Shown here: positions 1 to 17,141 of the stretch, in pieces | Layout: each line of letters starts with the position of its first letter | How positions within the stretch are numbered: the first letter of the stretch is position 1 | NCBI GenBank assembly: GCA_021158055.1 | Contig: JAGGVJ010000014.1 | Location: 1-24,371, forward strand | Reading direction: 5' to 3' | From: Candidatus Iainarchaeum sp. | GTDB taxonomy: Archaea; Iainarchaeota; Iainarchaeia; JAGGVJ01 | DNA length: 24,371 nucleotides | The notes under the pieces: generated by a model | Seen by the model: only the letters and a program-made list of their open reading frames with translations | What the model was told of the DNA's origin: nothing | Databases searched by the model: none | Made by a program: the position numbers and the translations under genes

Positions 1-836
1 ATAACTGCAAACGGTCGTTCGCCAACAGCTCTTTTTTTCGAAATTCTGTAATTCCTGTATTTTTGCTTAAACGTCAAATTTCCCCTCATCATATTTGCGT
101 TTCCTTTCGCTTTTGTTTTCGTTCTGGTGTACCATCTGTCACCGTACCGGACTTCGTTTTTGTCATCCAGGTTAATTTTACTGTCATGCACTGACGCTGT
201 TGTAACCTTATATTTTCTTATGAACTGCCTTTCCGAATCAACTTTCACGTGAGACTTGTAACCGTAATGCACCTGATTATTCTTAACTGAAAAAGTAGCG
301 TCCGCATCAATGTGTCGCTTTTGCTTTTCAGTATATTTAACCTTCTCGCCTTTCTTTTTCGCTTTTTTCTCTTTGTAGTGTCTTTTTTTGCCTAAATCCG
401 ATTCAATAAAAGTCGCGTCCTGAATAACCCCATTTTTAACAGCGTAACCTTTGGCATCAAGCTGTCTTTGAAGCTCGCTCCAAATCTTCCTGTCAACACC
501 CTCGTTTTTAAGACGCTCTCTTATCTTCCAAATCGTGCTGAAATCAGGAACGTTCTTTGGAAAATCAAGAAAATTACGAAAACTCAACCTGTCACACACC
601 TGAAACTCAAGCTCCGGGTCAGACAAACCATACCACGCCTGAAGAAGCATAACCCTCACAACCACCACCTCATCAGTATGCGGCCTCCCGCCACGCTCCT
701 TATCATCAAAAAACACACTTGAAACCAAAGGCACAAACGGAGCCCAATCAACCTTATTCTTCATCAAAGAAAGACGATCACCCAAACCACTCACTTTCTT
801 ATAACTATCCCTCAAAACAAACTGACTAAAATCCAC
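1..836 (-). CDS. IS5-family DDE transposase (DUF772 + DDE_Tnp_1 type), 3' end runs off the window
   Basis: Manual translation from GTG at 836 gives MDFSQFVLRDSYKKVSGLGDRL...GGRPHTDEVVVVRVMLLQAWYGLSDPELEFQVCDRLSFRNFL...VPDFSTIWKIRERL...IQDATFIE...HYGYKSHVKVD...TTASVHDS...GDRWY...KRAVGERPFAV, open to position 1. The GRP, LQxWYxLSD, PDxSTI, DAT, GYKxH, HD and ExxF motifs are typical of IS5. Missing from the ORF track because there is no stop inside the window. Confidence 0.92.
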   Translation of the reverse strand, partial: MDFSQFVLRDSYKKVSGLGDRLSLMKNKVDWAPFVPLVSSVFFDDKERGGRPHTDEVVVVRVMLLQAWYGLSDPELEFQVCDRLSFRNFLDFPKNVPDFSTIWKIRERLKNEGVDRKIWSELQRQLDAKGYAVKNGVIQDATFIESDLGKKRHYKEKKAKKKGEKVKYTEKQKRHIDADATFSVKNNQVHYGYKSHVKVDSERQFIRKYKVTTASVHDSKINLDDKNEVRYGDRWYTRTKTKAKGNANMMRGNLTFKQKYRNYRISKKRAVGERPFAV

Positions 837-906
837 ACCAACACCCCAATATTAATAAATACCAACACATATTACTACTTTACTAAAGGGGTTATTCAAA
901 ACTCTC
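1..906 (-). mobile_element. IS5-family insertion sequence (partial); candidate terminal inverted repeat at 888-906
   Basis: Transposase as above. Minus-strand GAGAGTTTTGAATAACCCC (906-888) lies about 50 nt upstream of the start and is bordered by TATA (907-910), a possible target site. The other end is outside the window, so the TIR is unconfirmed. Confidence 0.65.
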
Positions 907-931
907 TATAGTAAAGAGATTTATAACTTAT

Positions 932-2032
932 TCACAAGACATAACCATTTGCGTCCTCAATCAATCCAAATCCCGAACCTAATCCACTTGCATCAATATC
1001 AAGGTCTTCTATAAATATATCAGTAACTTCGCTTAAGTATTCGATATAAGTAAAAGAACCGATTTTTTCAAATACAAATTTATGGGAAGAATAAGACTTT
1101 AAAGAGGTGAAAAATTTCCCTTTATTTGCTGTAATTATCCATCGCGGATTATTTTTTCCGAATTTCTTTATGGTTAAATCTTTGAAGATATATTTTTTAT
1201 CTTTTTCATTATCGTAAAATGTAAGCACTGATGACAATTTGTGGTTAAATACTGATAGTTCTATTCTTGGCTCATAGTAAGTTATAATAGAACCGTTTGA
1301 AAATACGATTCTTCCCCAGTACCATGGAACAAAAGGACCGACCACAACAACTTTTTGAACATAGCATTTTCCAGAGAACTTTTTTTTATTTAACATTCCT
1401 GTAAAATCAAAGTATAAATCTATCAAGGTATAACCAGCGAATGATTTAAAATAATTGCTAAAACCAAAATGATCTGAATTATCTTTTGGTTTTGTTATTT
1501 TTAGATTTACAAGTTCTTTGTTATTCTTGGATATATTAAGGAAATAATCAGGAAACTTCCCTTTGTAATTTATTTTATATTGTTCATCAGAAGCTGTAAT
1601 GTTGTCAGGATTCATTGATATTGAACTTTTACCATCTAATATCAAATCTTTTTTATTATCATAAAACCAGACCGTCATATAACCATTTCTTCCGTTCTGT
1701 TTTCCGCATTTCACTTTTGTTTTATTTATTTTTATAATCTCCGAACTGTCTCCGAACATCACAAGAAGTTGTCTTTTGTCTTCGGGTTCTGTTGATGTAA
1801 ATTTCATAAACCAGTATTCTTTGCCGGTGGGGGGCAGATCTTCAAAACAAAAAAACATGGGGTCAATCTCGTGCGTAGAATTTTTTGTTTTTTTAAGTTC
1901 AATTAAGGACTTATACTTGGAATTAATCTGTTTGATTTTTTCTTTAAACTGCTTTTTTTCAATACTTGATAAGGTCTGGATATATTTATTTAGGGTATTG
2001 AATGCATCATCCTTCAGTTTTTTTATTTTCAT
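932..2032 (-). CDS. Uncharacterised protein, probable AttH/CrtC/tocopherol-cyclase-like double beta-barrel
   Basis: 366 aa with AAGGCGA SD-like site upstream. Basic helical N-terminus, then a beta-rich aromatic body with KEYWFMKF, FSGKCYVQK, PWYWGR and a C-terminal GFGLIE, resembling the EWWY / GxxYxD / WxW / GxGxxE landmarks of this superfamily. The fold call is an inference. Confidence 0.6.
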   Translation of the reverse strand: MKIKKLKDDAFNTLNKYIQTLSSIEKKQFKEKIKQINSKYKSLIELKKTKNSTHEIDPMFFCFEDLPPTGKEYWFMKFTSTEPEDKRQLLVMFGDSSEIIKINKTKVKCGKQNGRNGYMTVWFYDNKKDLILDGKSSISMNPDNITASDEQYKINYKGKFPDYFLNISKNNKELVNLKITKPKDNSDHFGFSNYFKSFAGYTLIDLYFDFTGMLNKKKFSGKCYVQKVVVVGPFVPWYWGRIVFSNGSIITYYEPRIELSVFNHKLSSVLTFYDNEKDKKYIFKDLTIKKFGKNNPRWIITANKGKFFTSLKSYSSHKFVFEKIGSFTYIEYLSEVTDIFIEDLDIDASGLGSGFGLIEDANGYVL

Positions 2033-2088
2033 ATTTTATCGCCTTTATTAAACTTAAAATCCGTTTTTTTTTTCTGTAATTTTTGGTT

Positions 2089-3582
2089 TTATGATTCAAT
2101 ATTCAGCGGTTTGCTGAATTTTTTTTCTACAATCGGCCTGTGAATATAATTATACGAGCAAAAAGGGATTATTCTATCATCGGGTGTGGAATAATGGACA
2201 ATGCAGCTCTGGACTCTCTGGCAGTCAAAATTATAACGGTCCATAAAATGCATAGCGCCAATCATCACTGATTTTTCGGCAAATATTTCCATCGCTTTTG
2301 CATCTCCTTTCAAAAAATTAATAATAAGTTTAGTTATATTCATTGATTTTGGCATTTTTGCTTTATCAACCAATTCAGGAATTTCTTTTATAATTTTAGC
2401 TATTGCCTTTACTTTCCAGATGCTGTGATTTTTTTCTTCATCTTCAGTTAGTTGCTTCATCAAATCAAAAAATCCGTTGACGTCAACGAATTTTGTTATC
2501 GGGGTTATTTTTTCGTCTTCTGCATAGATGTATGTTGCAGAACCGCAGGCAGGATGGCAGGATAATCTGCCCAGTCGCTTGTTGTGCCATCTTTCTAAAA
2601 ACAAATTCAACGGAACCACAAAGGGAACAGAATAAAAATCATCCGGTCCTATCTGTCCTTCTGTCTGTTTTTCAAGCAAATGCATTAAATCCGGCTGAGT
2701 GATTCTCATTTTCTTGAGATCTTTATTATCAACTCTTCCTGCAAATGACAGCGGCTGAAAATTTACCCCTCTGACAACATCGGCATTTTTTACAGCAAAT
2801 TTCACTATATCTCCTGCTTCTTTGTCATTGACGCCTCCGATCAATGTCGGGACCAGAACAATTTGCTTAAAATTCATCTGCCTGCAGTTTTCAATGACTT
2901 TCAATTTTGTTGGAAGCGCATTGAAACCGCGTATTGTATGGTATGGCTCTTCTGTAACTCCGTCAAACTGAAGATATACAGTATCTAAGCCGGCATTTTT
3001 TAAGGAAGTAATATAGCTTAAATCTTTTGAGATTTTTATCCCATTTGTGGCAATAAGAATATACAGGAATCCCATTTGTTTTGCCATCCTGATTATATCA
3101 GGTAAATCCTTACGCATTGTCGGTTCCCCTCCGGAAAACATGACTGCATTACAGCCAACGGGCTTTTCGTTTGTTAAATTGCGCAGCATTTTCCTTAACT
3201 GGTCCAAGGATGGTTCATAAACATAGCCGCAAGCTTCTGAATTGGCAAAGCACACAGGGCATCGTTGATTGCATCTGTTTGTCACATCAATAATGCCAAG
3301 GATCGTGGGGCTTTTATGATTGTTGCACAATCCGCAGTCATGAGGACAGTTATTTGTTGACAGGGTGTTTGGATTTTCCAAGCCTGTGTTGTCATATTTA
3401 TCTTTTAAAAATCTTTCAAATACCTTTGCATCCCCGTAATACAAGTCTTCAAAATCACCATGCTCTTTGCAGGTTTTTTTGATAAAAATTTTGTTGTCTT
3501 TTTCTTCCACTACTGCATCAATTGTTTTGTGGCATTCCGGGCACAATGATTTTGTTTTATAGGTCATTTTTTTTAGTTTCAT
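2089..3582 (-). CDS. tes: Radical SAM enzyme of the tetraether lipid synthase / GDGT-MAS (MJ0619) family
   Basis: N-terminal rubredoxin-like CPEC...CKEH, CPHDCGLCNNH auxiliary-cluster motif, radical SAM CNQRCPVC, FSGGEPT, YLQFDG, RGVNFQP, and C-terminal SCHPACG plus MHFMDRYNFDCQRVQSCIVHY...IPFCSYN. The 497-aa length fits the family. Confidence 0.85.
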   Translation of the reverse strand: MKLKKMTYKTKSLCPECHKTIDAVVEEKDNKIFIKKTCKEHGDFEDLYYGDAKVFERFLKDKYDNTGLENPNTLSTNNCPHDCGLCNNHKSPTILGIIDVTNRCNQRCPVCFANSEACGYVYEPSLDQLRKMLRNLTNEKPVGCNAVMFSGGEPTMRKDLPDIIRMAKQMGFLYILIATNGIKISKDLSYITSLKNAGLDTVYLQFDGVTEEPYHTIRGFNALPTKLKVIENCRQMNFKQIVLVPTLIGGVNDKEAGDIVKFAVKNADVVRGVNFQPLSFAGRVDNKDLKKMRITQPDLMHLLEKQTEGQIGPDDFYSVPFVVPLNLFLERWHNKRLGRLSCHPACGSATYIYAEDEKITPITKFVDVNGFFDLMKQLTEDEEKNHSIWKVKAIAKIIKEIPELVDKAKMPKSMNITKLIINFLKGDAKAMEIFAEKSVMIGAMHFMDRYNFDCQRVQSCIVHYSTPDDRIIPFCSYNYIHRPIVEKKFSKPLNIES

Positions 3583-3761
3583 ATTATATCACATCCATAT
3601 GATGTCGCATTAAGTAAACATAGGAAATTATTTTTCAAGTCGGCAACAGCACTGATTACGGGATTATCCGGATCATAAAAAGGTCTGCTTGCGCTCATTG
3701 TCATTAATAACATTGCAATAGCAGCAGAGGGGGTTAGCTTGTGTTTTATTTTATATTTCAT
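3579..3761 (-). CDS. Small 60-aa protein/peptide, translationally coupled to the radical SAM gene
   Basis: Its stop overlaps the rSAM start (ATGA, 3582-3579). It is preceded by the same AAGGCGA SD-like motif as the 366-aa gene and lies directly downstream of an operator candidate. Basic N-terminus, hydrophobic stretch and two C-terminal Cys. Confidence 0.6.
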   Translation of the reverse strand: MKYKIKHKLTPSAAIAMLLMTMSASRPFYDPDNPVISAVADLKNNFLCLLNATSYGCDII

Positions 3762-3810
3762 AATTATGTTCGCCTTATATAATATTGTCCCTATTTATTT
3801 GTTTTAACTT

Positions 3811-3830
3811 ATTTCAGTTTTTTGTGAAAT
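3811..3830. promoter_or_regulatory. Palindromic operator candidate ATTTCA-N8-TGAAAT upstream of the peptide-rSAM operon
   Basis: ATTTCAGTTTTTTGTGAAAT, 18/20 identical to the copy at 4344-4363. Confidence 0.7.
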
Positions 3831-3846
3831 TTAGGGCTAAAAAAAA

Positions 3847-4341
3847 TCACCCCAATAAATTCTTTATCTTTTCACCTGTAATTTTTTTCATGCTTATCAT
3901 TTTTCCAAACCAACCAAGATACATCTCAAGTTGTTTATATTCTGCAGTCAATCTTAACAATTTTGGATTTTTGTTTTTTTCATTTATCATATCCAAATGA
4001 TTGATAAGGGGACTGATATCGTGTTTTAATTGTCTTTTAATTAGTATGTTGAACGCTTCAATAAAGGATAACTCTAATTCGTATAGTTTTTCTCTTCCCG
4101 TCCCTCTAATAGACCTTATTAAATTTAATGATTCAAGAATTTTCAAACTAGGACTTACCAGACTTAAACTGTAATCTGTTTTCGTTGCTATATTTTTTTG
4201 AGAAAGAGGATATTCTGCAAATAAAAGCGTCGCCCATACTCTGCCGGCAGGTTCTCCGAGGCTCCACTGTTTGGAGATTTTTCCAGTCCGGTCAATAAAC
4301 TCTTTCTCAATTTTTGATATGTTTTGCTCCATTAGATTCAC
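3847..4341 (-). CDS. GbsR/MarR-type winged-helix transcriptional regulator
   Basis: QWSLGEPAGRVWATLLFAEYPLSQKNIATKTDYSLSLVSPSLKILESLNLIRSIRGTGREKLYE matches the GbsR-like pattern (WGxxxxxGRxxxxL...PLS..EI.....S...VS..L..L), followed by a C-terminal helical dimerisation region. Confidence 0.8.
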   Translation of the reverse strand: MNLMEQNISKIEKEFIDRTGKISKQWSLGEPAGRVWATLLFAEYPLSQKNIATKTDYSLSLVSPSLKILESLNLIRSIRGTGREKLYELELSFIEAFNILIKRQLKHDISPLINHLDMINEKNKNPKLLRLTAEYKQLEMYLGWFGKMISMKKITGEKIKNLLG

Positions 4342-4343
4342 AA

Positions 4344-4363
4344 ATTTCAGTTTTTAATGAAAT
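4344..4363. promoter_or_regulatory. Palindromic operator candidate (autoregulatory) immediately upstream of the regulator
   Basis: ATTTCAGTTTTTAATGAAAT lies between the regulator start and an AT-rich TATA-like stretch (about 4367-4386). Confidence 0.7.
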
Positions 4364-4616
4364 ATGTATAAATATATTTATAAATATTACTGTTTTCTGA
4401 ACGACAGGATTCCTCATAAATTATGAAGAACTCTTTATATTCTTATTTTAAAAAAGGAACCCATTGATCCTACGAACATTTACTCTCCTTTCGGTCAGGT
4501 CTTGAACCTGGGATAAACCAATAACTAAGGTTCGCTTTAAACAAGTTATGCAACAGAACCTCGAAAAAACACAATTAATTTAATACATTTAAGCCCAAGT
4601 TATAGAGGGCGATAGT

Positions 4617-5537
4617 ATTTCGTTTAAAGGAAGGAGCTTGATTTCAATATCTGATTTTTCAAGTAAGGAATGTGACAGGATTTTTGAGCTGGCGTCGGAG
4701 TATAAGCAGAACGGCGCTGAAAATGAGTGTTCCGGTAAGATTCTTGGAAGCGCGTTTTTTGAGCCGAGCACGAGAACGATGCTTTCTTTTCATTCGGCAA
4801 TGCAGCGTTTGGGCGGGAATGTTCTTGGGTTTTCTGACACGTCGACTACTTCTGTGAAAAAGGGCGAGTGTCTTGCAGACACGATGCGCACTCTTGCAGC
4901 TTATTGTGACCTGATGGTGATAAGGCATCCAAACGAGGGTTCTGCAAAACTTTCTTCAGAGTTTGCTTCTGTCCCGGTTATCAATGCAGGGGACGGGGGA
5001 AGAGAACATCCGACCCAGACTTTGCTTGATTTGTTTACGATAAAAGAGAATAAGGATTCTGTAAAGGGCTTGAATGTTGTCCTTTGCGGTGACCTTAAAT
5101 ACGGCCGCACAGTGCATTCTCTTGCCATGGCTCTTGCCGGGATGGGTGCAGATATAACTTGCGTGTCACCTCCCGAACTGAAAATGCCTGAATCAGTCAC
5201 TACGTGTCTTGAGAGAAAACACAAAGTAAGTGTGGTTGAAGAAAATGAATTGTCTTCTGCTGTGAAAGATGCTGACGTCTTGTACATGACAAGGATTCAG
5301 AAGGAGCGTTTTGGAAGCCCTGAAGAATATGCAAAGGTGAAAGACTGTTACGTGGTGAATAAGGAGATCATGTCAAAGGCAAATGAAAATATGCTTTTGA
5401 TGCATCCTCTTCCGCGGGTAAACGAAATTTCTCTTGATGTTGATTCTGACAAGAGGGCGATTTTTTTTGAACAGGCGCTGAACGGTGTTTTTGTTCGCAT
5501 GGCGCTTATTTCTTTGATTTTGGGGGTGAGGGATTGA
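4617..5537 (+). CDS. pyrB: Aspartate carbamoyltransferase catalytic subunit
   Basis: FFEPSTRT, IRHP, NAGDG, HPTQ, GDLKYGRTVHSL, YMTRIQKERF and HPLPR motifs. Start extended from TTG 4638 to a proposed ATT at 4617 to restore the conserved FKGR-x-LISI N-terminus. Confidence 0.96.
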   Translation: MSFKGRSLISISDFSSKECDRIFELASEYKQNGAENECSGKILGSAFFEPSTRTMLSFHSAMQRLGGNVLGFSDTSTTSVKKGECLADTMRTLAAYCDLMVIRHPNEGSAKLSSEFASVPVINAGDGGREHPTQTLLDLFTIKENKDSVKGLNVVLCGDLKYGRTVHSLAMALAGMGADITCVSPPELKMPESVTTCLERKHKVSVVEENELSSAVKDADVLYMTRIQKERFGSPEEYAKVKDCYVVNKEIMSKANENMLLMHPLPRVNEISLDVDSDKRAIFFEQALNGVFVRMALISLILGVRD

Positions 5538-5995
5538 GCCTGAAAGTGGATGTGATAGGGAACGGAACAGTTATTGATCATATTCCGGGCGGCCGGGGTC
5601 TTCTTTGCCTTAAGGTGCTTGGTATTGAATCAATTGACAGCCCGGTTATCCTTCTTTCAAACGTGTCTTCCAATAACAAGGGTGGAAAAAAGGATTTGAT
5701 TAAGATAGAGGACAGGTTTCTCACGCCAAAAGAGCACAACAAGCTTGCTATAATTGCCCCGGGCGCAACGGTCAATATAATAAATGACACGCATGTAACA
5801 GATAAAAGGCTGATTTCTGTTCCTGAAAAGTTTGTTGATGTGATTTGCTGCACAAACCCGAATTGCGTTTCAAACACGGAGAGTTATATTTCAAGCAGTT
5901 TTGCAGTTGAACGAAAGGAGCCGCTTGAAGTCCGTTGCAGCTATTGCGACAGGGTTGTTGGAGCAAAGCAGTTGTTGCGTCAGGTAATCGGTTAA
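5534..5995 (+). CDS. pyrI: Aspartate carbamoyltransferase regulatory subunit
   Basis: GTVIDHI, KKDLIKIE, ATVNII and the Zn-binding CxNPNCVS...RCSYC. Overlaps the pyrB stop (TTGA). Confidence 0.96.
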   Translation: MSLKVDVIGNGTVIDHIPGGRGLLCLKVLGIESIDSPVILLSNVSSNNKGGKKDLIKIEDRFLTPKEHNKLAIIAPGATVNIINDTHVTDKRLISVPEKFVDVICCTNPNCVSNTESYISSSFAVERKEPLEVRCSYCDRVVGAKQLLRQVIG

Positions 5996-6036
5996 TTTGT
6001 TGCGTCAGGTATGGGTTATTTATTGTTGCTGCAGGT
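5972..6036. repeat. Degenerate ~25-bp direct repeat duplicating the pyrI 3' end
   Basis: TTGTTGCGTCAGGTA at 5972-5986 and 5997-6011, with a degenerate third copy TTGTTGCTGCAGGT at 6023-6036. Confidence 0.6.
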
Positions 6037-6066
6037 GTCGTTGATTGCCCCTTTGCAGATAATCAG

Positions 6067-7314
6067 TTATCCTGTTAGGCAGTAGTTGACTTCAAGGAAG
6101 TTTTTCCTTAGTTCTTTGACGTCTTCTTTTACGTTTTTGTTTTCAATGACTGCTTTTTTTATGAGTTCTGCAATTTCAGTCATTTCGCTTTCTTTCATTC
6201 CCCACCGCGTCATTTCCTGTGTTCCGATCCTTATTCCGGCAGGGCTTTTCATTGTTTTTGAGTTTATTTTTTCACCGGGAATGAAGTTTTTGTTGAGGAT
6301 GATGTTCATTGATTCAAGAAGTTCTGCTACGTGTTTTCCGCCGCCGTGGCTTGTTGCGTCAAAGAGGACCTGGTGGCTTTGGGTGAATCCGTTGTTTTCG
6401 GCTTTCACGTCAAACCCGCGTTCAAAAAGTGCTTGTGCGAGCGCTTTTGCGTTTTTTATTGTCTGGGTTGCGTAGTCCTGTCCGAAGGTAATCATTTCCT
6501 GCGCGGTGACTGCAAGCGAGAACAGTTTGTGTTGGTGGAAGTTGCAGGTTATTTGAGGAAATATCTTGTTTTCTATTGCCTGCCATGTTTCGTTGTCTTT
6601 TGAACTCATCACGACGCCGCTTTGCGGTCCGGGAAATGTCTTGTGGGTTGATGACGTGAGTATGTCTGCTCCTTCCCGAAACGGGTCCTGAAATGTTTTG
6701 CCGGCGATTAACCCGAAAACGTGTGCAGCGTCATACATTACGTGCGCTCCGTGTTCTTTTGCGGCTTCCGAAAGCTCTTTTATGGGGTGGGGGAAGAGCA
6801 TGACTGAACCTCCGAACAGGACTATTTTGGGTTGCTTTTCCCTGATGAGTTTTTCTGTTGCGTCGATGTCAATGTTCATTTCCTGCGCGTCGAAGGGAAA
6901 GCTGGTTTCTTTTAACCCGATCAGCCCTGCGGTGCCGAATTTTGTGTGTGACACGTGCCCTCCGTTTTGAATTGCGCTTGTCATTATCCGGTCCCCGAAG
7001 TTTGCAGTTGCAGCAAAGGCGGCCATGTTGCTTTGGGTCCCGCTTAACGGGCGGAGGTCTGTGCACTTGCATTGAAAAAGGGTGTTGAAAAGGTTTTGCG
7101 TCAGCGAGTCTATTTCGTCTATGAATCTGCTTCCCTGGTAGTGGCGTGCCCAGGTTTTTCCTTCTGCGTAGCGGTGGGCTGCGTCGTTTAGATACATTTG
7201 GTCTGCAAAGGGAGAGGTGACGTTTTCCGAAGCGATTAAGTTAATGCATTCTGTTTTTCGCCAGTTGTCCTGGTTTTCTTTTATTTCTTTTATTTTTTGA
7301 ATGGTTGCGTCCAA
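6067..7314 (-). CDS. glyA: Serine hydroxymethyltransferase (archaeal type)
   Basis: INLIASEN, YAEG, LSGTQSN, GGHVSH, YDAAH, the PLP-lysine motif SSTHKTFPGPQSG and GIRIGT. Likely start is TTG at 7314 (GGGGA SD upstream) rather than 7359. Confidence 0.96.
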   Translation of the reverse strand: MDATIQKIKEIKENQDNWRKTECINLIASENVTSPFADQMYLNDAAHRYAEGKTWARHYQGSRFIDEIDSLTQNLFNTLFQCKCTDLRPLSGTQSNMAAFAATANFGDRIMTSAIQNGGHVSHTKFGTAGLIGLKETSFPFDAQEMNIDIDATEKLIREKQPKIVLFGGSVMLFPHPIKELSEAAKEHGAHVMYDAAHVFGLIAGKTFQDPFREGADILTSSTHKTFPGPQSGVVMSSKDNETWQAIENKIFPQITCNFHQHKLFSLAVTAQEMITFGQDYATQTIKNAKALAQALFERGFDVKAENNGFTQSHQVLFDATSHGGGKHVAELLESMNIILNKNFIPGEKINSKTMKSPAGIRIGTQEMTRWGMKESEMTEIAELIKKAVIENKNVKEDVKELRKNFLEVNYCLTG

Positions 7315-7351
7315 GTAATCCCCTGTATTTTTATAAGAAGTAAAAGGCGGG

Positions 7352-7387
7352 GATGGCAAGAGAACTAAGGATTAGGCTCTCACCATC
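7352..7387 (-). promoter_or_regulatory. RNA hairpin at the 5' end of the glyA leader
   Basis: Minus-strand GATGGTGAGAG pairs with CTCTTGCCATC (11 bp, two G-U pairs), with an inner CTAA/TTAG stem. A TATA-like TTTAAATA at 7418-7411 places the TSS near its 5' end. Confidence 0.5.
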
Positions 7388-7441
7388 TAAATTAGATATG
7401 AACAAAAATATATTTAAACTGTTTGATTTTTTTAAAGAATG

Positions 7442-7515
7442 TGGTGCACCGACGGGGAATCGAACCCCGGTAACAAGCTTGGAAGGCTTGAGTCATGCCG
7501 CTAGACCATCGGTGC
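7442..7515 (-). tRNA. tRNA-Gly (TCC), intron-less, CCA encoded
   Basis: GCACCGA/TCGGTGC acceptor stem, D arm TGGTCTAGCGGCATGAC, anticodon arm CAAGC-CTTCCAA-GCTTG, T arm CGGGG-TTCGATT-CCCCG and 3' ACCA. Confidence 0.97.
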
Positions 7516-7726
7516 ATTTGTTTAAATGTTTTATTTTTGAGTACTCTATATATGTGCTTTGAAAAAATAAAAACATTGCCCCTGCTTTCAATCAGTTGAA
7601 TAATTGAGAAATAGGCTTGACGGCTGTTGGTGCTGCCACCTGGTTGTTTGATGCCTGTTGCTGGCTATTGATAAGTATGACTAACTATTTTGACTGCCTT
7701 TGGTTGACAACACGCTTGTTTTGTTT

Positions 7727-7981
7727 TCAGTCAAGTATTTTGTCAGCGTATTTGTGGCTCAGTATTGCAAAGATGACAAAAATTGTTCCTATCCCGAAAA
7801 GTTCAAAAATTTGAATCAGTTGAATGTTTTTGAAAGCAATGCTAACAGGCACTCCCAAAGTTTCGATTCTTGAGACGTTTCCAAGAAAGTCCATCAGTGT
7901 AGTTACTCCAAAATAGAAATAAGTAGCTGATATAAACCCGTTTAAGGCAGTAATTATTTTTATTGCGAGTTCTTTTTCCAT
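7727..7981 (-). CDS. Small membrane protein (about 2 TM), unknown function
   Basis: 84 aa with ATG start and two hydrophobic segments. No family recognised. Confidence 0.6.
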   Translation of the reverse strand: MEKELAIKIITALNGFISATYFYFGVTTLMDFLGNVSRIETLGVPVSIAFKNIQLIQIFELFGIGTIFVIFAILSHKYADKILD

Positions 7982-8113
7982 AAATCCATTAAAGTATCGG
8001 GGTGTTTTTATTTGTTTTGGTTGTTGTTATTCTGCAGATTGATTGCCGCGGTTGGTTTTGTTGGTCTTAGGGTCGGTGTTTTTATTGCGTTTTTGTTTTG
8101 CTAATTATCCTGT

Positions 8114-8765: not shown

Positions 8766-10760
8766 TTAATCAGGGATTCCTGTGGCGGTTGCCCAGAAAG
8801 TCAATGTGCCTGTTTCTGTTCCTGTTCCAGAGTAATTTTCCGGCGTGTCAAGGCTTGTTGAAACGGTTGACTCGTGTACGAAGTCGCCGGGATCAGCTGT
8901 CAATCCCATGAGGAAGATGTCCCATGGGTTTGCATCCAGCAACAGGTTTTTTGTGTACAGTGTGCCTTCGCTGTCTGTCACTTCTGCTTCTATTTTCAGA
9001 TTCCATGACCCGCTGTTTTTCAGTGTCAGCTTTGTGCCTGAAACATTGTATCCGGGTCCGAATGAGCCGAAATCAATTGACAACGGGTTCACTGAAAAAG
9101 AAACAGCAGGGATGATTACTGAGGTCATCCGGACATCCGAGCTTGTTTGTTCTCCTCCGTCCACGCTGAATTCAAGTTTTTCGCTTCTAAAGTATTTGCC
9201 GTCGGGTTTTTCCGCGTAGACCTGTTTTGCGCCTCCGGAAGAAAATGTTATTGTCGCTGTTCCCAAGTCATCGGTTGTCTGTTCAGAGCTTGCGCCTTTT
9301 ACTGTCGCGCCTTCCAGCGGATGCCATTTGCCTTCGTCTTTGTGAAAGTATTCCACTGTTACGTCGACGTTTTCCCCTGCGTTAGCTTCTGTCGAACCGG
9401 CTGTTATCCTGAGCGCGCTTGCGTTCCAGTCCCCGTAAAACCACACTGCTTTTTCGTGCGGCGGGTTTGGCGGACTGCTTTCCTGCCATATGAAGCTGTT
9501 CACTGAAGTGAACCCGGTTGAATGGTAATCGACCCTTATGTTCCACCCGTCCAGTCCGCTTGCATCATATCCTGCCACGCCGTTCACGTAAAACCCCATT
9601 GCAGGGTACCATTCGTCACTGATGCTCACCGAAAAACTGTTTTCTTTTCCTGCCTGAAGCAATCCCATCAACAGGCTGGGTTCTGTCAGGGTGTATGTTG
9701 TCTGGCTGTTTGAAGACGTGAAGTCAATTGAGTCAGGCAGTTCTATTTCGGTGTCAAGGATTGTCTGGTCAGGTGCTTCTATCCTGATTGCCATTGTGTG
9801 GCTTGTTGCCTGCTGAATGGTTTTTACCGGGTGGGGTTTTCCAAGCAGTGCGTTGACGGCGTTTGCAGTGGTCCACCCGCTTGAAGTCAGTTCCGGATTA
9901 GCGTAAGGGTTGCTGAATCCCCCGTCTGCCTGCTGCCAGTCAAGAATGTAATCAACAGGGTTTGTGCCGTTTTTATCCCACTCGGCTGAAGTGGGGTCTT
10001 GTTCAACTGCTGCAATTGATTCAATTGCGTAAGAGGTTGAATCCGGGTTTGCCTGCCCCCATGAAACGAAGCCGGCGCTACTTGAGTGCTGTTGGGTTTT
10101 CAGATAATCTATTGCGTTCTCTATGTTTGTTTCCGTTTTTGGCTTTCCGGCTGAAACAAGGGCCATTATTGCGGTTGCCGTGCTGTCGGCGTCGCTTGAC
10201 TGGCCTGTGCCCCAGCTCCACCCGTTGTCTGTTCCCTGGTTTGATTCAATGAAATTGACCATTCCCTGTATTTCTGTTGATGAAGCAGGTTCTCCTGCGC
10301 AGATTAATGCGATTACTCCCCAGAAATCATCATTTAGCAGGGTTGAACTTCCCATTTGCGCTTCGCCGTGGTTGTACATTGATTTCAGTTTTGCAACATA
10401 GTCAAGCCCGTTGAAGTTTTTCGGGTCTTTGTCTGCTGCAACGATTGCAATGATCTGCCTTTCAAAGTCTGTTGCTGTCCTGCCTGGGTCATCAAACCAC
10501 AAGGCATCTTTTTTTATGCAGTCAACCAGTGAGTTGTCTCCTGTAGACCATTCGCTTGAGGAAGGGTCTTCACCTGCTGCTGTAACTGCGCTTATCACCC
10601 ATGCGCTTGTTGAAAATCCTCCGATGCACCCGTCGCTGTCCTGCTGTGATTTGAAATAATCCAGTGAGTTTGCTATTTCAGTGTCAGAGGCATTCATCGG
10701 ATAGGCATGAGCCCCGGCAGTCAATAGTAATATGACCAAAATACTTAATGCGTGTTTCAA
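8766..10760 (-). CDS. Secreted transcobalamin-like protein: prenyltransferase/squalene-cyclase-type alpha/alpha repeats + DUF4430-like domain + Ig-like and pilin-like C-terminal domains
   Basis: Signal peptide and TTG start with AGGTGG SD. Repeated (Y/F)xxxQxxDG(G)(F/W) helical-barrel motifs (YFKSQQDSDG, FIESNQGTDNGW, YLKTQQHSSSAGF, YILDWQQADGGF). Then GFYVNGVAG...DGWNIRVD...VWFY (DUF4430-like), PLEGATV...TDDLGTATITF (Ig-like) and a C-terminal GTLTFWAT. Confidence 0.78.
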   Translation of the reverse strand: MKHALSILVILLLTAGAHAYPMNASDTEIANSLDYFKSQQDSDGCIGGFSTSAWVISAVTAAGEDPSSSEWSTGDNSLVDCIKKDALWFDDPGRTATDFERQIIAIVAADKDPKNFNGLDYVAKLKSMYNHGEAQMGSSTLLNDDFWGVIALICAGEPASSTEIQGMVNFIESNQGTDNGWSWGTGQSSDADSTATAIMALVSAGKPKTETNIENAIDYLKTQQHSSSAGFVSWGQANPDSTSYAIESIAAVEQDPTSAEWDKNGTNPVDYILDWQQADGGFSNPYANPELTSSGWTTANAVNALLGKPHPVKTIQQATSHTMAIRIEAPDQTILDTEIELPDSIDFTSSNSQTTYTLTEPSLLMGLLQAGKENSFSVSISDEWYPAMGFYVNGVAGYDASGLDGWNIRVDYHSTGFTSVNSFIWQESSPPNPPHEKAVWFYGDWNASALRITAGSTEANAGENVDVTVEYFHKDEGKWHPLEGATVKGASSEQTTDDLGTATITFSSGGAKQVYAEKPDGKYFRSEKLEFSVDGGEQTSSDVRMTSVIIPAVSFSVNPLSIDFGSFGPGYNVSGTKLTLKNSGSWNLKIEAEVTDSEGTLYTKNLLLDANPWDIFLMGLTADPGDFVHESTVSTSLDTPENYSGTGTETGTLTFWATATGIPD

Positions 10761-15602: not shown

Positions 15603-17141
15603 TTATTTTGGCCATATAAAGGCATTTCTGGTTTCTTCCAGGTCGTTTGAGTAAAGCTGTTTTAAGCTGTCTATGTTGTAAACGTCAATTACCATCCTTT
15701 CAAACCCGGGCCCCCACGCAAGCACAGGTATGTCTTCTCCGAGGAGCGGGACAACCACTTCGGGCCGGAATATTCCTGCGCCCCCGAGCTCGAGCCATTT
15801 TTGCTTTTTCGGGTGAAATACTTCGATTTCAACGCTCATTTCAGTGTATGGAAAGTACGCCGGCCGAAACCGCGCCTGCGGAAACCCGAGTTTTGAAAAG
15901 AACCTTTTGAGGTATCCGAGAAGGTGCTTGAATGATGCGTTTTCGTCAACGACTATTCCTTCGACCTGATAGAATTCTGCCAGGTGGCTCCAGTCAATTG
16001 TTTCGTTTCTGAAAACCCGTCCCACTGAAAAGAATTTTGCAGGCAGGTCTTTTTTTGAGAGTGATGCAAGGGTTCGCGCTGAAAGGGAGGTGGTGTGCGT
16101 GCGAAGCACTGGTTTTTCTGATTCGCTTTTGCTCCATTTGTAGTTCCAGCCCGTTGATTCCATGTTGCCTCCTTTTTCATGGGTTTCATGCACTTTTTTG
16201 ACAAGCTCTTTGTTGTCGTTTGTTATTTTTTCCGGGTTTTTCAAAAAGAAAGTGTCCTGCATTTCCCGTCCCGGATGGTCTTGCGGGATGTAAAGTGAGT
16301 CAAATACCCAAAAGCTTGAGTCTGCCATGGGTCCGGTCATTTCTGTGAAACCCATTTCAAGCCAGATCTGTCTGGTGAACTCCAGCGCTTCGTACATGTA
16401 GTGCCTGCGTCCTGCCATGGCCGGGGGTGCTGGGGCGTCAGTGTTGTACGGGCGAAAGCTGGTGGTTTTCCATTTTTTGCTTTTGATTATTTTCGGCGTT
16501 AAAACGTTTATTTCTTCAGTTATTTCAATGCCTGTTGAAATGGCTTCCATGCCAAGTTTTGTAAGCAGCGCAGTTCGCGTTGTTTTTTCCCGCACCTGTA
16601 CAAGCCCTCGTTTCACAAGCGTGTCAAGGGTGCTTTTCAGTTCCGCGACATCGGGACCTGTGACTGTGCCCGGTTCAAGTATTTTCAGCAGTTTTTCTGA
16701 GTCGCTTGTCTTGTTGTTGTCTTTGAGTCCTTTTTCAGTTAATGAAATGTTTTTTCCTTCAAATTCTATCCAGCCGTTTTTTTTCATCCACCCGAGGGCG
16801 ATGTTCGGGTTTGAAATGTTTGCTTTTTTTGACAGCTCGTCAAGGGGTGCTTTTTTCAGTTCCGCGAGTGCGTTTAGCATGAGTTTTTCAGGAAGGCCAT
16901 TTTTCGCGTATTTTTCTCCTTCTTCTTTGAGTGAGTAGTATTCGTTTATTTTTTCTTCTATTTCCGCGAGTTTTTTTGAGGAGAGCCACATGGCTGCGTT
17001 CATAAGGGAGTTTTTTTCCAGCCCGCTTGATGTTTCCAGCTCTTCAATGTCTTTTTTTTTGCCTGCTTTGAGGCAAATCAGCAGTTTTTTTTCGTTTTGA
17101 TGAAGTTCTTTAATGAGTGATTTTAAGTCCAGACAAAACAC
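15603..17141 (-). CDS. pheS: Phenylalanine-tRNA ligase alpha subunit (archaeal type with N-terminal HTH domains)
   Basis: PQDHPGREMQDTF, LRTHTT, GRVFRNE...HLAEFYQVEG, FPYTEMS, WLELGGAGIFRPEV and AWGPGFER. Start may be CTG at 17132. Confidence 0.96.
   Translation of the reverse strand: MFCLDLKSLIKELHQNEKKLLICLKAGKKKDIEELETSSGLEKNSLMNAAMWLSSKKLAEIEEKINEYYSLKEEGEKYAKNGLPEKLMLNALAELKKAPLDELSKKANISNPNIALGWMKKNGWIEFEGKNISLTEKGLKDNNKTSDSEKLLKILEPGTVTGPDVAELKSTLDTLVKRGLVQVREKTTRTALLTKLGMEAISTGIEITEEINVLTPKIIKSKKWKTTSFRPYNTDAPAPPAMAGRRHYMYEALEFTRQIWLEMGFTEMTGPMADSSFWVFDSLYIPQDHPGREMQDTFFLKNPEKITNDNKELVKKVHETHEKGGNMESTGWNYKWSKSESEKPVLRTHTTSLSARTLASLSKKDLPAKFFSVGRVFRNETIDWSHLAEFYQVEGIVVDENASFKHLLGYLKRFFSKLGFPQARFRPAYFPYTEMSVEIEVFHPKKQKWLELGGAGIFRPEVVVPLLGEDIPVLAWGPGFERMVIDVYNIDSLKQLYSNDLEETRNAFIWPK

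Follow-up and report, generated by a model that had tools for sequence, protein, structure and literature searches.

A probable horizontally transferred lipid-remodelling operon built around a tetraether lipid synthase in a Candidatus Iainarchaeum genome

Introduction

What is a radical S-adenosylmethionine (SAM) enzyme of the tetraether lipid synthase (Tes) family doing in an AT-rich block of four genes in a small DPANN genome? The block lies at positions 932-4363 of a 24,371-nucleotide stretch, called the window here, which is contig C27 of Candidatus Iainarchaeum sp. assembly GCA_021158055.1 (G000; 1.15 Mb, 45 contigs, 95% complete). In the open reading frame (ORF) list of the window it consists of four co-oriented ORFs, all on the minus strand: a regulator gene, a 60-codon ORF, the radical SAM gene and the gene of a 366-residue beta-barrel protein. 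A preliminary description had proposed a self-regulated, horizontally acquired island beside an insertion sequence (IS), which either remodels ether lipids, possibly those of a host, or uses the Tes scaffold on another substrate such as the adjacent peptide. We conclude, with a probability of about 0.6, that 932-4363 represents a lipid-remodelling operon, horizontally transferred and stripped of its transporter genes. Its function would most likely be the regulated conversion of diether lipids into tetraethers that may be hydroxylated.

Results

The radical SAM enzyme

The enzyme at the centre of the island is encoded as follows.

2089..3582, minus strand: tetraether lipid synthase Tes (GDGT-MAS orthologue), intact, 497 aa, matching NF045702 and 7TOL

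Against the NCBIfam equivalog NF045702 the protein scores 680.1 bits (cut-off 450) over model positions 1-485 of 486. It carries the Pfam domains Radical_SAM and Zn_ribbon_HMPTM, and its residues 6-494 align to 21-509 of 7TOL, the structure of M. jannaschii MJ0619, with 580.6 bits. The metal ligands of MJ0619, as given by Lloyd et al. 2022 (PMC9433317), are C9X2C12X20C33X2H36, C73/C77/C80 with a histidine, a CX3CX2C motif and Met439. The rubredoxin-like site CX2CX20CX2H is kept as C14, C17, C38 and H41, corresponding to C9, C12, C33 and H36, and the auxiliary N-terminal [4Fe-4S] site (CX3CX2C plus histidine) as C79, C83, C86 and H89, corresponding to C73, C77, C80 and the histidine. In a 40-sequence alignment all ligand residues are invariant or nearly so; the four residues of the auxiliary site, C104, C108 and C111 of the radical SAM motif CX3CX2C, and M444 (equivalent to the labile Met439), H445, F446 and D448 of the MHFMD segment in the C-terminal cluster region are invariant, as are C346, C460 and C475. 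The assignment to the Tes/GDGT-MAS family with its cofactor motifs, MHFM among them, was borne out: judged by its sequence, the radical SAM protein is a true Tes/GDGT-MAS that keeps the ligands of all four metal sites, and its predicted products would be glycerol dialkyl glycerol tetraethers (GDGTs) or macrocyclic archaeol. It is the sole match in the genome above the NF045702 cut-off, the 14 other radical SAM matches reaching at most 62.7 bits. A second, housekeeping tes beside that of the island was not found above the cut-off in this 95%-complete genome.

A deletion scar in place of a transporter

The ORF upstream of tes had been read as a gene whose peptide might be the substrate of the radical SAM enzyme. 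The features at this point are:

3579-3761, minus strand: 60-codon ORF, 60 aa, its stop overlapping the radical SAM start (ATGA)
3640..3761, minus strand: 5' remnant of a CARDB gene, ~41 initial codons (signal or transmembrane part) from the gene for a 391-aa CARDB-domain protein
3583..3639, minus strand: 3' remnant of an ATP-binding cassette (ABC) ATPase gene and the native spacer before tes, aligning with 5930-6000 of locus L012
3770-3776, minus strand: AAGGCGA motif ahead of the 60-codon ORF

Searched with tblastn against the loci of relatives (numbered L), the peptide matches the start of a CARDB gene, at 62% identity over 37 aa in L011 and L012 and at 47% in L015. In DNA alignments the ORF changes from CARDB sequence to the end of an ABC gene at about 3640/3639. 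In L011, L012 and L015 three intact genes separate the regulator from tes; they encode a 391-aa CARDB protein, a 408-aa FtsX+MacB_PCD permease and an ABC_tran ATPase of 231-251 aa whose best NCBIfam match is LolD (TIGR02211, 234 bits, below the cut-off of 308). The ORF is, as these alignments indicate, the fusion left by a deletion of ~3 kb that removed the CARDB, permease and ATPase genes. The scar in L013 is a different and shorter one, and L009 lacks a scar ORF; since the window, L013 and L009 differ at this point, the transporter appears to have been lost at least three separate times. The fuller module of relatives thus has six genes, for regulator, CARDB-domain surface protein, MacB-type permease, LolD-like ATPase, Tes and barrel. 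Of the conserved four-gene synteny that had been anticipated, the regulator, Tes and barrel genes are indeed shared with relatives, and the four-gene form is not the full one.

These results bear on the proposal that the Tes scaffold has been repurposed as a maturase of the 60-residue product, resembling those of ribosomally synthesised and post-translationally modified peptides (RiPPs). The ATGA overlap and the Shine-Dalgarno-like motif speak in its favour. We nevertheless give this proposal next to no credence: the ORF is a CARDB/ABC chimera, missing in L009 and differently truncated in L013; neither a SPASM nor an RRE domain was found; and the radical SAM protein scores as a Tes equivalog and keeps the full length of the lipid enzyme. 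A RiPP precursor paired with the radical SAM enzyme was accordingly ruled out, there being a deletion chimera and no conserved precursor gene.

Evidence for horizontal transfer

Protein identities, gene trees and base composition were used to examine the origin of the module. Between G000 and five other carrier genomes (G215-G219), Tes is 77-88%, the barrel protein 76-83% and the regulator 72-89% identical, whereas PheS and PheT of the same genome pairs share 34-45% and 35-42%. In all three module genes G000 is nearest to G215. Three of the carriers (G216, G218 and G219) are close kin, with PheS at 93%; in two of these, G218 and G219, the insertion site is shared, the module being flanked by a Na+/H+ exchanger-TrkA gene on one side and a P-type ATPase on the other. 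Among radical SAM relatives in 47 genome loci, 7 stand at 77-87% identity and the next at 49%; in the protein collection, 10 clusters (own included) are at least 70% identical to the window Tes and the remainder at most 56%. The window Tes belongs to a shallow clade of 71-100% identity whose next relatives reach at most 56%. Within its own GTDB class a Tes above the cut-off occurs in 10 of 41 sampled genomes, only 40-44% identical to that of the window, and the best barrel match in 215 same-class genomes has only 33% identity.

In a quick IQ-TREE search of 74 rows, from which 10 near-duplicates and loci with fewer than 400 aligned residues had been dropped beforehand, the window Tes falls inside a 100%-supported clade of 11. 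This clade lies among sequences of Methanosarcinales, Methanocellales and Hydrothermarchaeota and away from the Tes of same-class DPANN genomes. Joining the two DPANN groups costs 179 log-likelihood units (approximately unbiased test, p-AU 9e-18, for a grouping chosen after the tree was seen). The GC content of the island is 0.334, that of the whole window 0.409 and that of pyrB, pyrI and glyA to its right 0.44-0.46. For GC at third codon positions (GC3), ranked among the 807 genome ORFs of at least 150 aa, the 366-aa gene stands at percentile 2.7, the regulator at 3.5 and the radical SAM gene at 10.7, compared with 42, 48 and 89 for pyrB, pyrI and glyA. Further AT-rich stretches were found elsewhere in the window and the genome, and the module loci of relatives have a GC content of 0.31-0.39. 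Because identity, tree incongruence and composition agree, the module appears foreign, and horizontal acquisition of Tes, barrel and regulator by G000, as first suggested, is supported at the sequence level; vertical descent was not what the phylogeny returned.

We weighed against this a vertically inherited housekeeping tes with incidental neighbours, the semblance of transfer arising from the binning of metagenome-assembled genomes (MAGs) or from chimeric assembly. The tes of the island is the sole one of its genome, several relative contigs carry implausible bin labels, and Zeng et al. 2022 (PMC8941075) treat Tes homologues in DPANN MAGs as unexpected and raise contamination from their hosts. 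The labels concern L011 (JAIWAJ010000043.1) and L012 (JAIVYS010000012.1), near-identical six-gene modules binned as Methanosarcinales and Bathyarchaeota, which could reflect either mis-binning or a further sign of mobility. The module of L012 is flanked by genes for Complex-I/hydrogenase-like subunits. However, the island shares its 24-kb contig with pheS and pheT, for which DPANN archaea provide the best titled matches (51-52% and below for PheS), and independent Logan contigs from two runs of one hydrothermal-vent study span 3777-8000 with zero differences, bridging regulator, pyrB and glyA. In addition, the same-class Tes sequences branch elsewhere, the three module genes give the same identity pattern, their GC3 values rank in the genome's lowest 3-11%, and L013 and L015 are large contigs (98 kb and 167 kb) that carry the module in another context. 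Taken together, a housekeeping tes is very improbable.

So far as these data allow a judgement, the island is genuinely joined to the chromosome. Several of the Logan contigs stop at 801-868, and breaks occur at 3777-3790 in both runs; the depth of island contigs (10.4 and 13.8) is about three quarters of that of the flanks (14.1 and 19.1). Shared breaks and lower depth could mean that the island is not fixed, or strain heterogeneity, or only a repeat or GC effect, and contig depth cannot carry such a claim. A further run, X3, holds island fragments of 90-97% identity and no pyrBI, yet also a glyA-like piece, and shows nothing firm.

The beta-barrel partner

The last gene of the island encodes a protein for which a lipid-binding or hydratase-type role had been suggested.

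932..2032, minus strand: 366-aa AttH/CrtC-fold double beta-barrel protein, cytosolic, three helices at its N terminus; candidate hydratase of isoprenoids, or lipid binder

The AlphaFold2 model, built with 40 homologues (pLDDT 89.2, pTM 0.90), has three N-terminal helices followed by ~24 strands and no signal peptide. In VIA-align comparisons with representative structures, the model matches Fsa2 (Z 21.7), CghA (21.0), AttH NE1406 (20.8), the 7dmo pericyclase (20.7), kievitone hydratase (19.1) and 25-phosphosteroid lyase (17.5), the next row standing at 8.3, and Foldseek returns the same structure set. A PDB search with the sequence gave chance matches only. The model therefore agrees with the suggested role at the level of fold: the partner would share the fold of isoprenoid hydratases and lipid binders. 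Within the family, Lipocalin_9 is reached by 3 of 40 members at E<=1 (best E 0.0066), a minority of members have Atlas neighbours with CrtC, CrtC_C, DA_N or Tocopherol_cycl, and an EWWY-like stretch (KEYWF) alone aligns to a CrtC-family protein, with an hhalign probability of 1%. The 40 homologues share 24 invariant columns, including E72, Y73, W74, W122, D209, Y224, Q226, K227, W237, W239, R241, E331 and E359. The family is small: a word-indexed profile search returned 102 proteins, and an exhaustive one 204 representatives at E<=0.001. Its members come from DPANN-labelled MAGs, Altiarchaeota, Micrarchaeota and Methanosarcina/Methanolobus, and 10 remote relatives bore uninformative names. G000 itself has two tandem distant paralogues (~28-32% identity; C39:2238-4422, L265) between scpA and endonuclease III/scpB, with no lipid context around them.

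We asked how firmly the barrel gene is linked to tes. In the close set, defined as nine distinct contigs with any module gene at 70% identity or more, the two are adjacent in six, once in reversed order (L015); one contig has Tes without the barrel and two (L186 and L187) have the barrel without Tes. Across the wider barrel family, the flanks fetched include Tes at 8 of the 80 loci from genomes and 8 of the 78 from metagenomes, several of these being the same records. The distant, independent linkages, at 40-43% identity, comprise L207/L281, with Tes-MMPL-CARDB-GT2-barrel opposite MacB x2-CARDB-ABC, and L283; L228 (Methanolobus bombayensis) and three metagenome contigs have the order TrmB-Tes-barrel-ABC1 kinase with MMPL alongside. 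In a FastTree analysis of 82 members, the distant Tes-linked barrels fall into three subclades of one clade with 99% support. Other family members adjoin UbiA, Caroten_synth, ABC1/UbiB or MacB-ABC genes. By gene neighbourhood, the context of the barrel is consistently isoprenoid lipid handling, with Tes an optional partner.

These data bear most directly on a reading in which the barrel is a non-enzymatic cytosolic lipid carrier or chaperone, shielding hydrophobic chains and handing a diether to Tes or, ancestrally, product to the MacB/Lol-type ABC system, so that only plain GDGT or macrocyclic archaeol would be made. The lipocalin-like double barrel is a fold used for binding, associations of the family with the lipid handlers MacB-ABC, MMPL and ABC1/UbiB are more widespread than those with Tes, and L186 and L187 retain the barrel on its own. 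On the other hand, the 24 invariant columns include charged and aromatic residues, a pattern closer to an active site than to a hydrophobic pocket, and the nearest characterised folds are mostly enzymes that act at isoprenoid ends. We hold the carrier to be rather unlikely, and favour the lipid-remodelling operon in which the barrel is a candidate enzyme, its activity being predicted from the modelled fold.

A pyrB-like gene, 28-35% identical to the window PyrB, lies ~2.5 kb upstream of tes in many Methanomicrobiales-labelled loci (L018-L022, L025, L026, L032, L041 and L054). In L023 and L024, labelled Bathyarchaeota, a pyrI homologue lies ~1.5 kb downstream of tes; the window island also abuts pyrBI. 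This proximity may be either coincidence or an old neighbourhood.

The regulator and its operators

The features at the upstream end of the island are:

3847..4332, minus strand: winged-helix regulator (MarR/TrmB/ArsR/GbsR-like), 161 aa; a GTG at 4341 would give 164 aa
4344..4363, unstranded: operator O1, ATTTCA-N8-TGAAAT, 10 nt downstream of the TATA-like box and 11 nt upstream of the regulator ATG
3811..3830, unstranded: operator O2, the same palindrome, between the regulator gene and the downstream genes
4374..4384, minus strand: TATA-like box TTTATAAATAT of the predicted regulator promoter, its core TTATAA present in 6 of 6 aligned upstream regions

The regulator ATG at 4332 is kept in all six copies. 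The Atlas neighbours of the protein (scores 0.93-0.95) carry HTH_5, TrmB and MarR_2 and are of MarR, TrmB, ArsR and GbsR types; its AlphaFold2 model (pLDDT 63) is too poor for a fold search. The palindrome ATTTCA-N8-TGAAAT occurs three times in the window and in none of 100 shuffles. O1 is kept in L012, L009 and L186 and has a degenerate left arm in L015 and L013, while O2 is identical in L012 and L009, is likewise conserved in L186 and carries one or two changes in L015 and L013. A third exact copy (16522-16541) sits inside pheS and is probably due to chance. The duplicated operator of the preliminary description is therefore real in the sense that two copies occupy promoter regions and are conserved. 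Its dedicated repressor also holds as a predicted winged-helix protein with conserved palindromes at its own promoter and before the structural genes; from the geometry of the sites, the 161-aa protein is probably an autorepressor.

Genomic setting

To the left of the island the window begins within a transposase gene, and a second copy of the motif seen above lies ahead of the barrel gene.

3..836, minus strand: IS5-family transposase gene, cut by the contig end; NF033581 163.6 bits (cut-off 140), Pfam DUF772 and DDE_Tnp_1
2039..2045, minus strand: AAGGCGA, Shine-Dalgarno-like, 6 nt before the 366-aa gene's ATG

The IS5 end probably reaches ~909, and window positions 798-909 are 87% identical to G000:C35:5959-6076. 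The co-oriented, AT-rich, IS-adjacent layout of four genes was confirmed. The IS5 fragment is present as described, but no relative locus carries an IS5, and for that reason the element looks incidental. Neither an integrase nor flanking repeats were seen around the island, the genome-specific IS5 fragment being the only mobility gene. To the right, pyrB, pyrI and glyA are followed by pheT, pheS and other housekeeping genes, and the sole tRNA of the window, a tRNA-Gly, lies at 7442-7515.

AAGGCGA had been put forward as a shared motif of the island genes. With four occurrences in the window, where 3.2 would be expected, and at least as many in 39 of 100 shuffled sequences, it is not enriched; two of the four copies do precede start codons, those of the 60-codon ORF and the 366-aa gene, by 6-8 nt. 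A bacterial promoter scan, ill-suited to an archaeon, gave 18 sites against 17.8 expected, and a bacterial-type terminator scan, equally ill-suited, gave 6 against 2.1. A few kilobases from the island, at 8766-10760 on the minus strand, a gene of normal GC (0.49) encodes a 664-aa protein of isoprenoid-type fold, with matches to the squalene-hopene-cyclase C-terminal domain (E 1e-11) and the prenyltransferase alpha-alpha toroid (E 2.5e-8).

Host lipid pathway

Host-derived lipids had been considered as a possible substrate. The genome has two PcrB/GGGP synthases, three UbiA proteins, CarS and three geranylgeranyl reductases (GGRs), along with two polyprenyl synthases and HMG-CoA reductase. Since it encodes ether-lipid genes of its own, host lipids need not be invoked. 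A second, very AT-rich lipid cluster lies at a contig end (G000:C33:40504-43809, L077 and L081; GC3 0.19-0.26), with genes for a V4R-domain protein, a GGR-like protein, a UbiA prenyltransferase and a TrmB regulator; next to it are a GGR and two polyprenyl synthases. As this cluster suggests, the organism's own ether-lipid pathway may also be foreign in part.

The sole B12-binding radical SAM gene of the genome (G000:C14:11528-14227, L271) encodes 899 aa, and its best NCBIfam matches, PhpK, HpnJ, BchE and 'lipid biosynthesis B12-binding/radical SAM', all fall well short of the respective cut-offs. A dense radical SAM cluster, with at least seven matches within 8 kb, lies at G000:C28:46263-54006.

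Discussion

The operon could work as follows. The repressor would hold it off until a signal, plausibly lipid-related, releases the protein from its sites. Tes would then join archaeol-type lipids of the cell itself at their chain ends, to give GDGT or macrocyclic archaeol. The barrel would act on the same isoprenoid chains, most likely by hydrating a residual double bond to a tertiary alcohol, and the outcome would be hydroxylated diethers or tetraethers, as with the AttH-like hydratase Hgs. Alternatively, still within the lipid-remodelling operon, the barrel might merely bind and present the chains.

Several observations weigh against this model. For most of the barrel family, at 72 of 80 genome and 70 of 78 metagenome loci, the fetched flanks contain no Tes. 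The 366-aa protein has no match in Pfam or NCBIfam, with CrtC (PF07143), Lipocalin_9 (PF17186) and DA_N/DA_C unreached at E 0.01, and the barrel fold is shared by non-hydratases, among them Diels-Alderases, a lyase and AttH, whose function is unknown. The domain matches of the regulator all fall below their cut-offs (DUF7343, E 0.0045; HTH_metalloreg, E 0.001; CudC, E 0.0023). No tetraether desaturase (Ted), the B12-binding radical SAM enzyme that supplies double bonds to Hgs, lies beside the island, the single B12-binding radical SAM gene of the genome being on contig C14, and no PF13685 match to a glycerol-1-phosphate dehydrogenase of the Fe-ADH_2 type was found in the 95%-complete genome, although it has the remainder of the archaeol pathway. 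Finally, two marker proteins carry the case for transfer, together with MAG bins of which some are clearly mislabelled.

Comparison with known systems places the module more precisely. It is like GDGT-MAS/Tes (MJ0619, 7TOL/7TOM; MA_1486 of Methanosarcina acetivorans; NF045702) in its full-length alignment, equivalog score and metal-site motifs. It differs in that its tes would belong to a repressor-controlled mobile operon with an AttH-fold partner and, ancestrally, a MacB/Lol-type ABC system, and in that its host is a 1.15-Mb DPANN genome and its product a prediction from sequence. The barrel shares its two-barrel fold with CrtC carotenoid 1,2-hydratase, kievitone hydratase (7A0Q), AttH NE1406 (2ICH), 25-phosphosteroid lyase (9FZN), Fsa2, CghA and Phm7, over ~255-293 aligned residues at Z 17.5-21.7, and several of these act on the terminal isoprene unit of a lipid-like substrate; sequence identity is, however, 7-10%, and the window protein matches none of Pfam CrtC, Lipocalin_9 or DA. 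In Agrobacterium, AttH goes with an ABC ATPase and FtsX-type permeases (AttEFGH). The LolD-like ATPase and FtsX+MacB_PCD permease directly beside the barrel gene in relatives recall AttEFGH, LolCDE and MacB, from which the module differs in that the barrel has no signal peptide, the transporter has been lost in the window and a CARDB protein stands in for any known adaptor.

A further parallel is Hgs, a recently described hydroxy-GDGT synthase from the superfamily whose fold the barrel model has. According to the available part of Garcia et al. (bioRxiv 10.1101/2025.10.20.683597), this AttH-like hydratase makes hydroxylated GDGTs (OH-GDGTs) from double bonds put in by Ted; its gene overlaps ted, and its homologues are mainly from Methanobacteriota and Bathyarchaeota, DPANN not being mentioned in that part. 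Insofar as that account goes, the two systems have in common a non-radical-SAM protein of the AttH/CrtC kind beside a radical SAM lipid gene, in anaerobic archaea of hydrothermal sediments, and an expected chemistry in which an isoprenoid double bond is hydrated to a tertiary alcohol; they differ in that the partner of hgs is ted, while the neighbours of the window barrel are tes and IS5, and in that the window family has an N-terminal helical extension of 60 residues and no Pfam match. Three Bathyarchaeia genomes gave no match to the barrel profile. Among 251 Bathyarchaeia genomes PF17186 was matched in none and PF07143 in one, and this single match has no B12-binding radical SAM neighbour and aligns to the barrel over a short motif only.

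In a literature search, neither a Tes-AttH operon nor the transfer of Tes among DPANN turned up. As far as our searches show, three points are new: tes moves between genomes within a regulated operon, an uncharacterised AttH-fold family recurs as its partner, and the operon has shed a Lol/MacB-like transporter on at least three separate occasions. A bolder version can be formulated, in which a self-regulated tetraether cassette (Tes, AttH-fold hydratase, Lol/MacB-type extractor and CARDB protein) of Methanosarcinales-like methanogen origin moves among unrelated DPANN lineages and makes hydroxylated membrane-spanning lipids from own or host diethers without Ted. We consider this version doubtful, and quite improbable as a whole. 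If it were true, the 366-aa family would be a second, independent hydroxy-tetraether (or hydroxy-archaeol) synthase, and DPANN archaea would count among the true producers of GDGT and OH-GDGT biomarkers.

For the biology of these organisms, the locus indicates that at least one DPANN genome truly encodes Tes, gained by transfer, because the gene stands on one contig with DPANN-type pheS and pheT and its junction is bridged by independent assemblies. The two-gene set of tes and barrel offers a concrete test case for a Ted-independent route to hydroxylated ether lipids, and bears on which organisms make the GDGT and OH-GDGT proxies in anoxic sediments.

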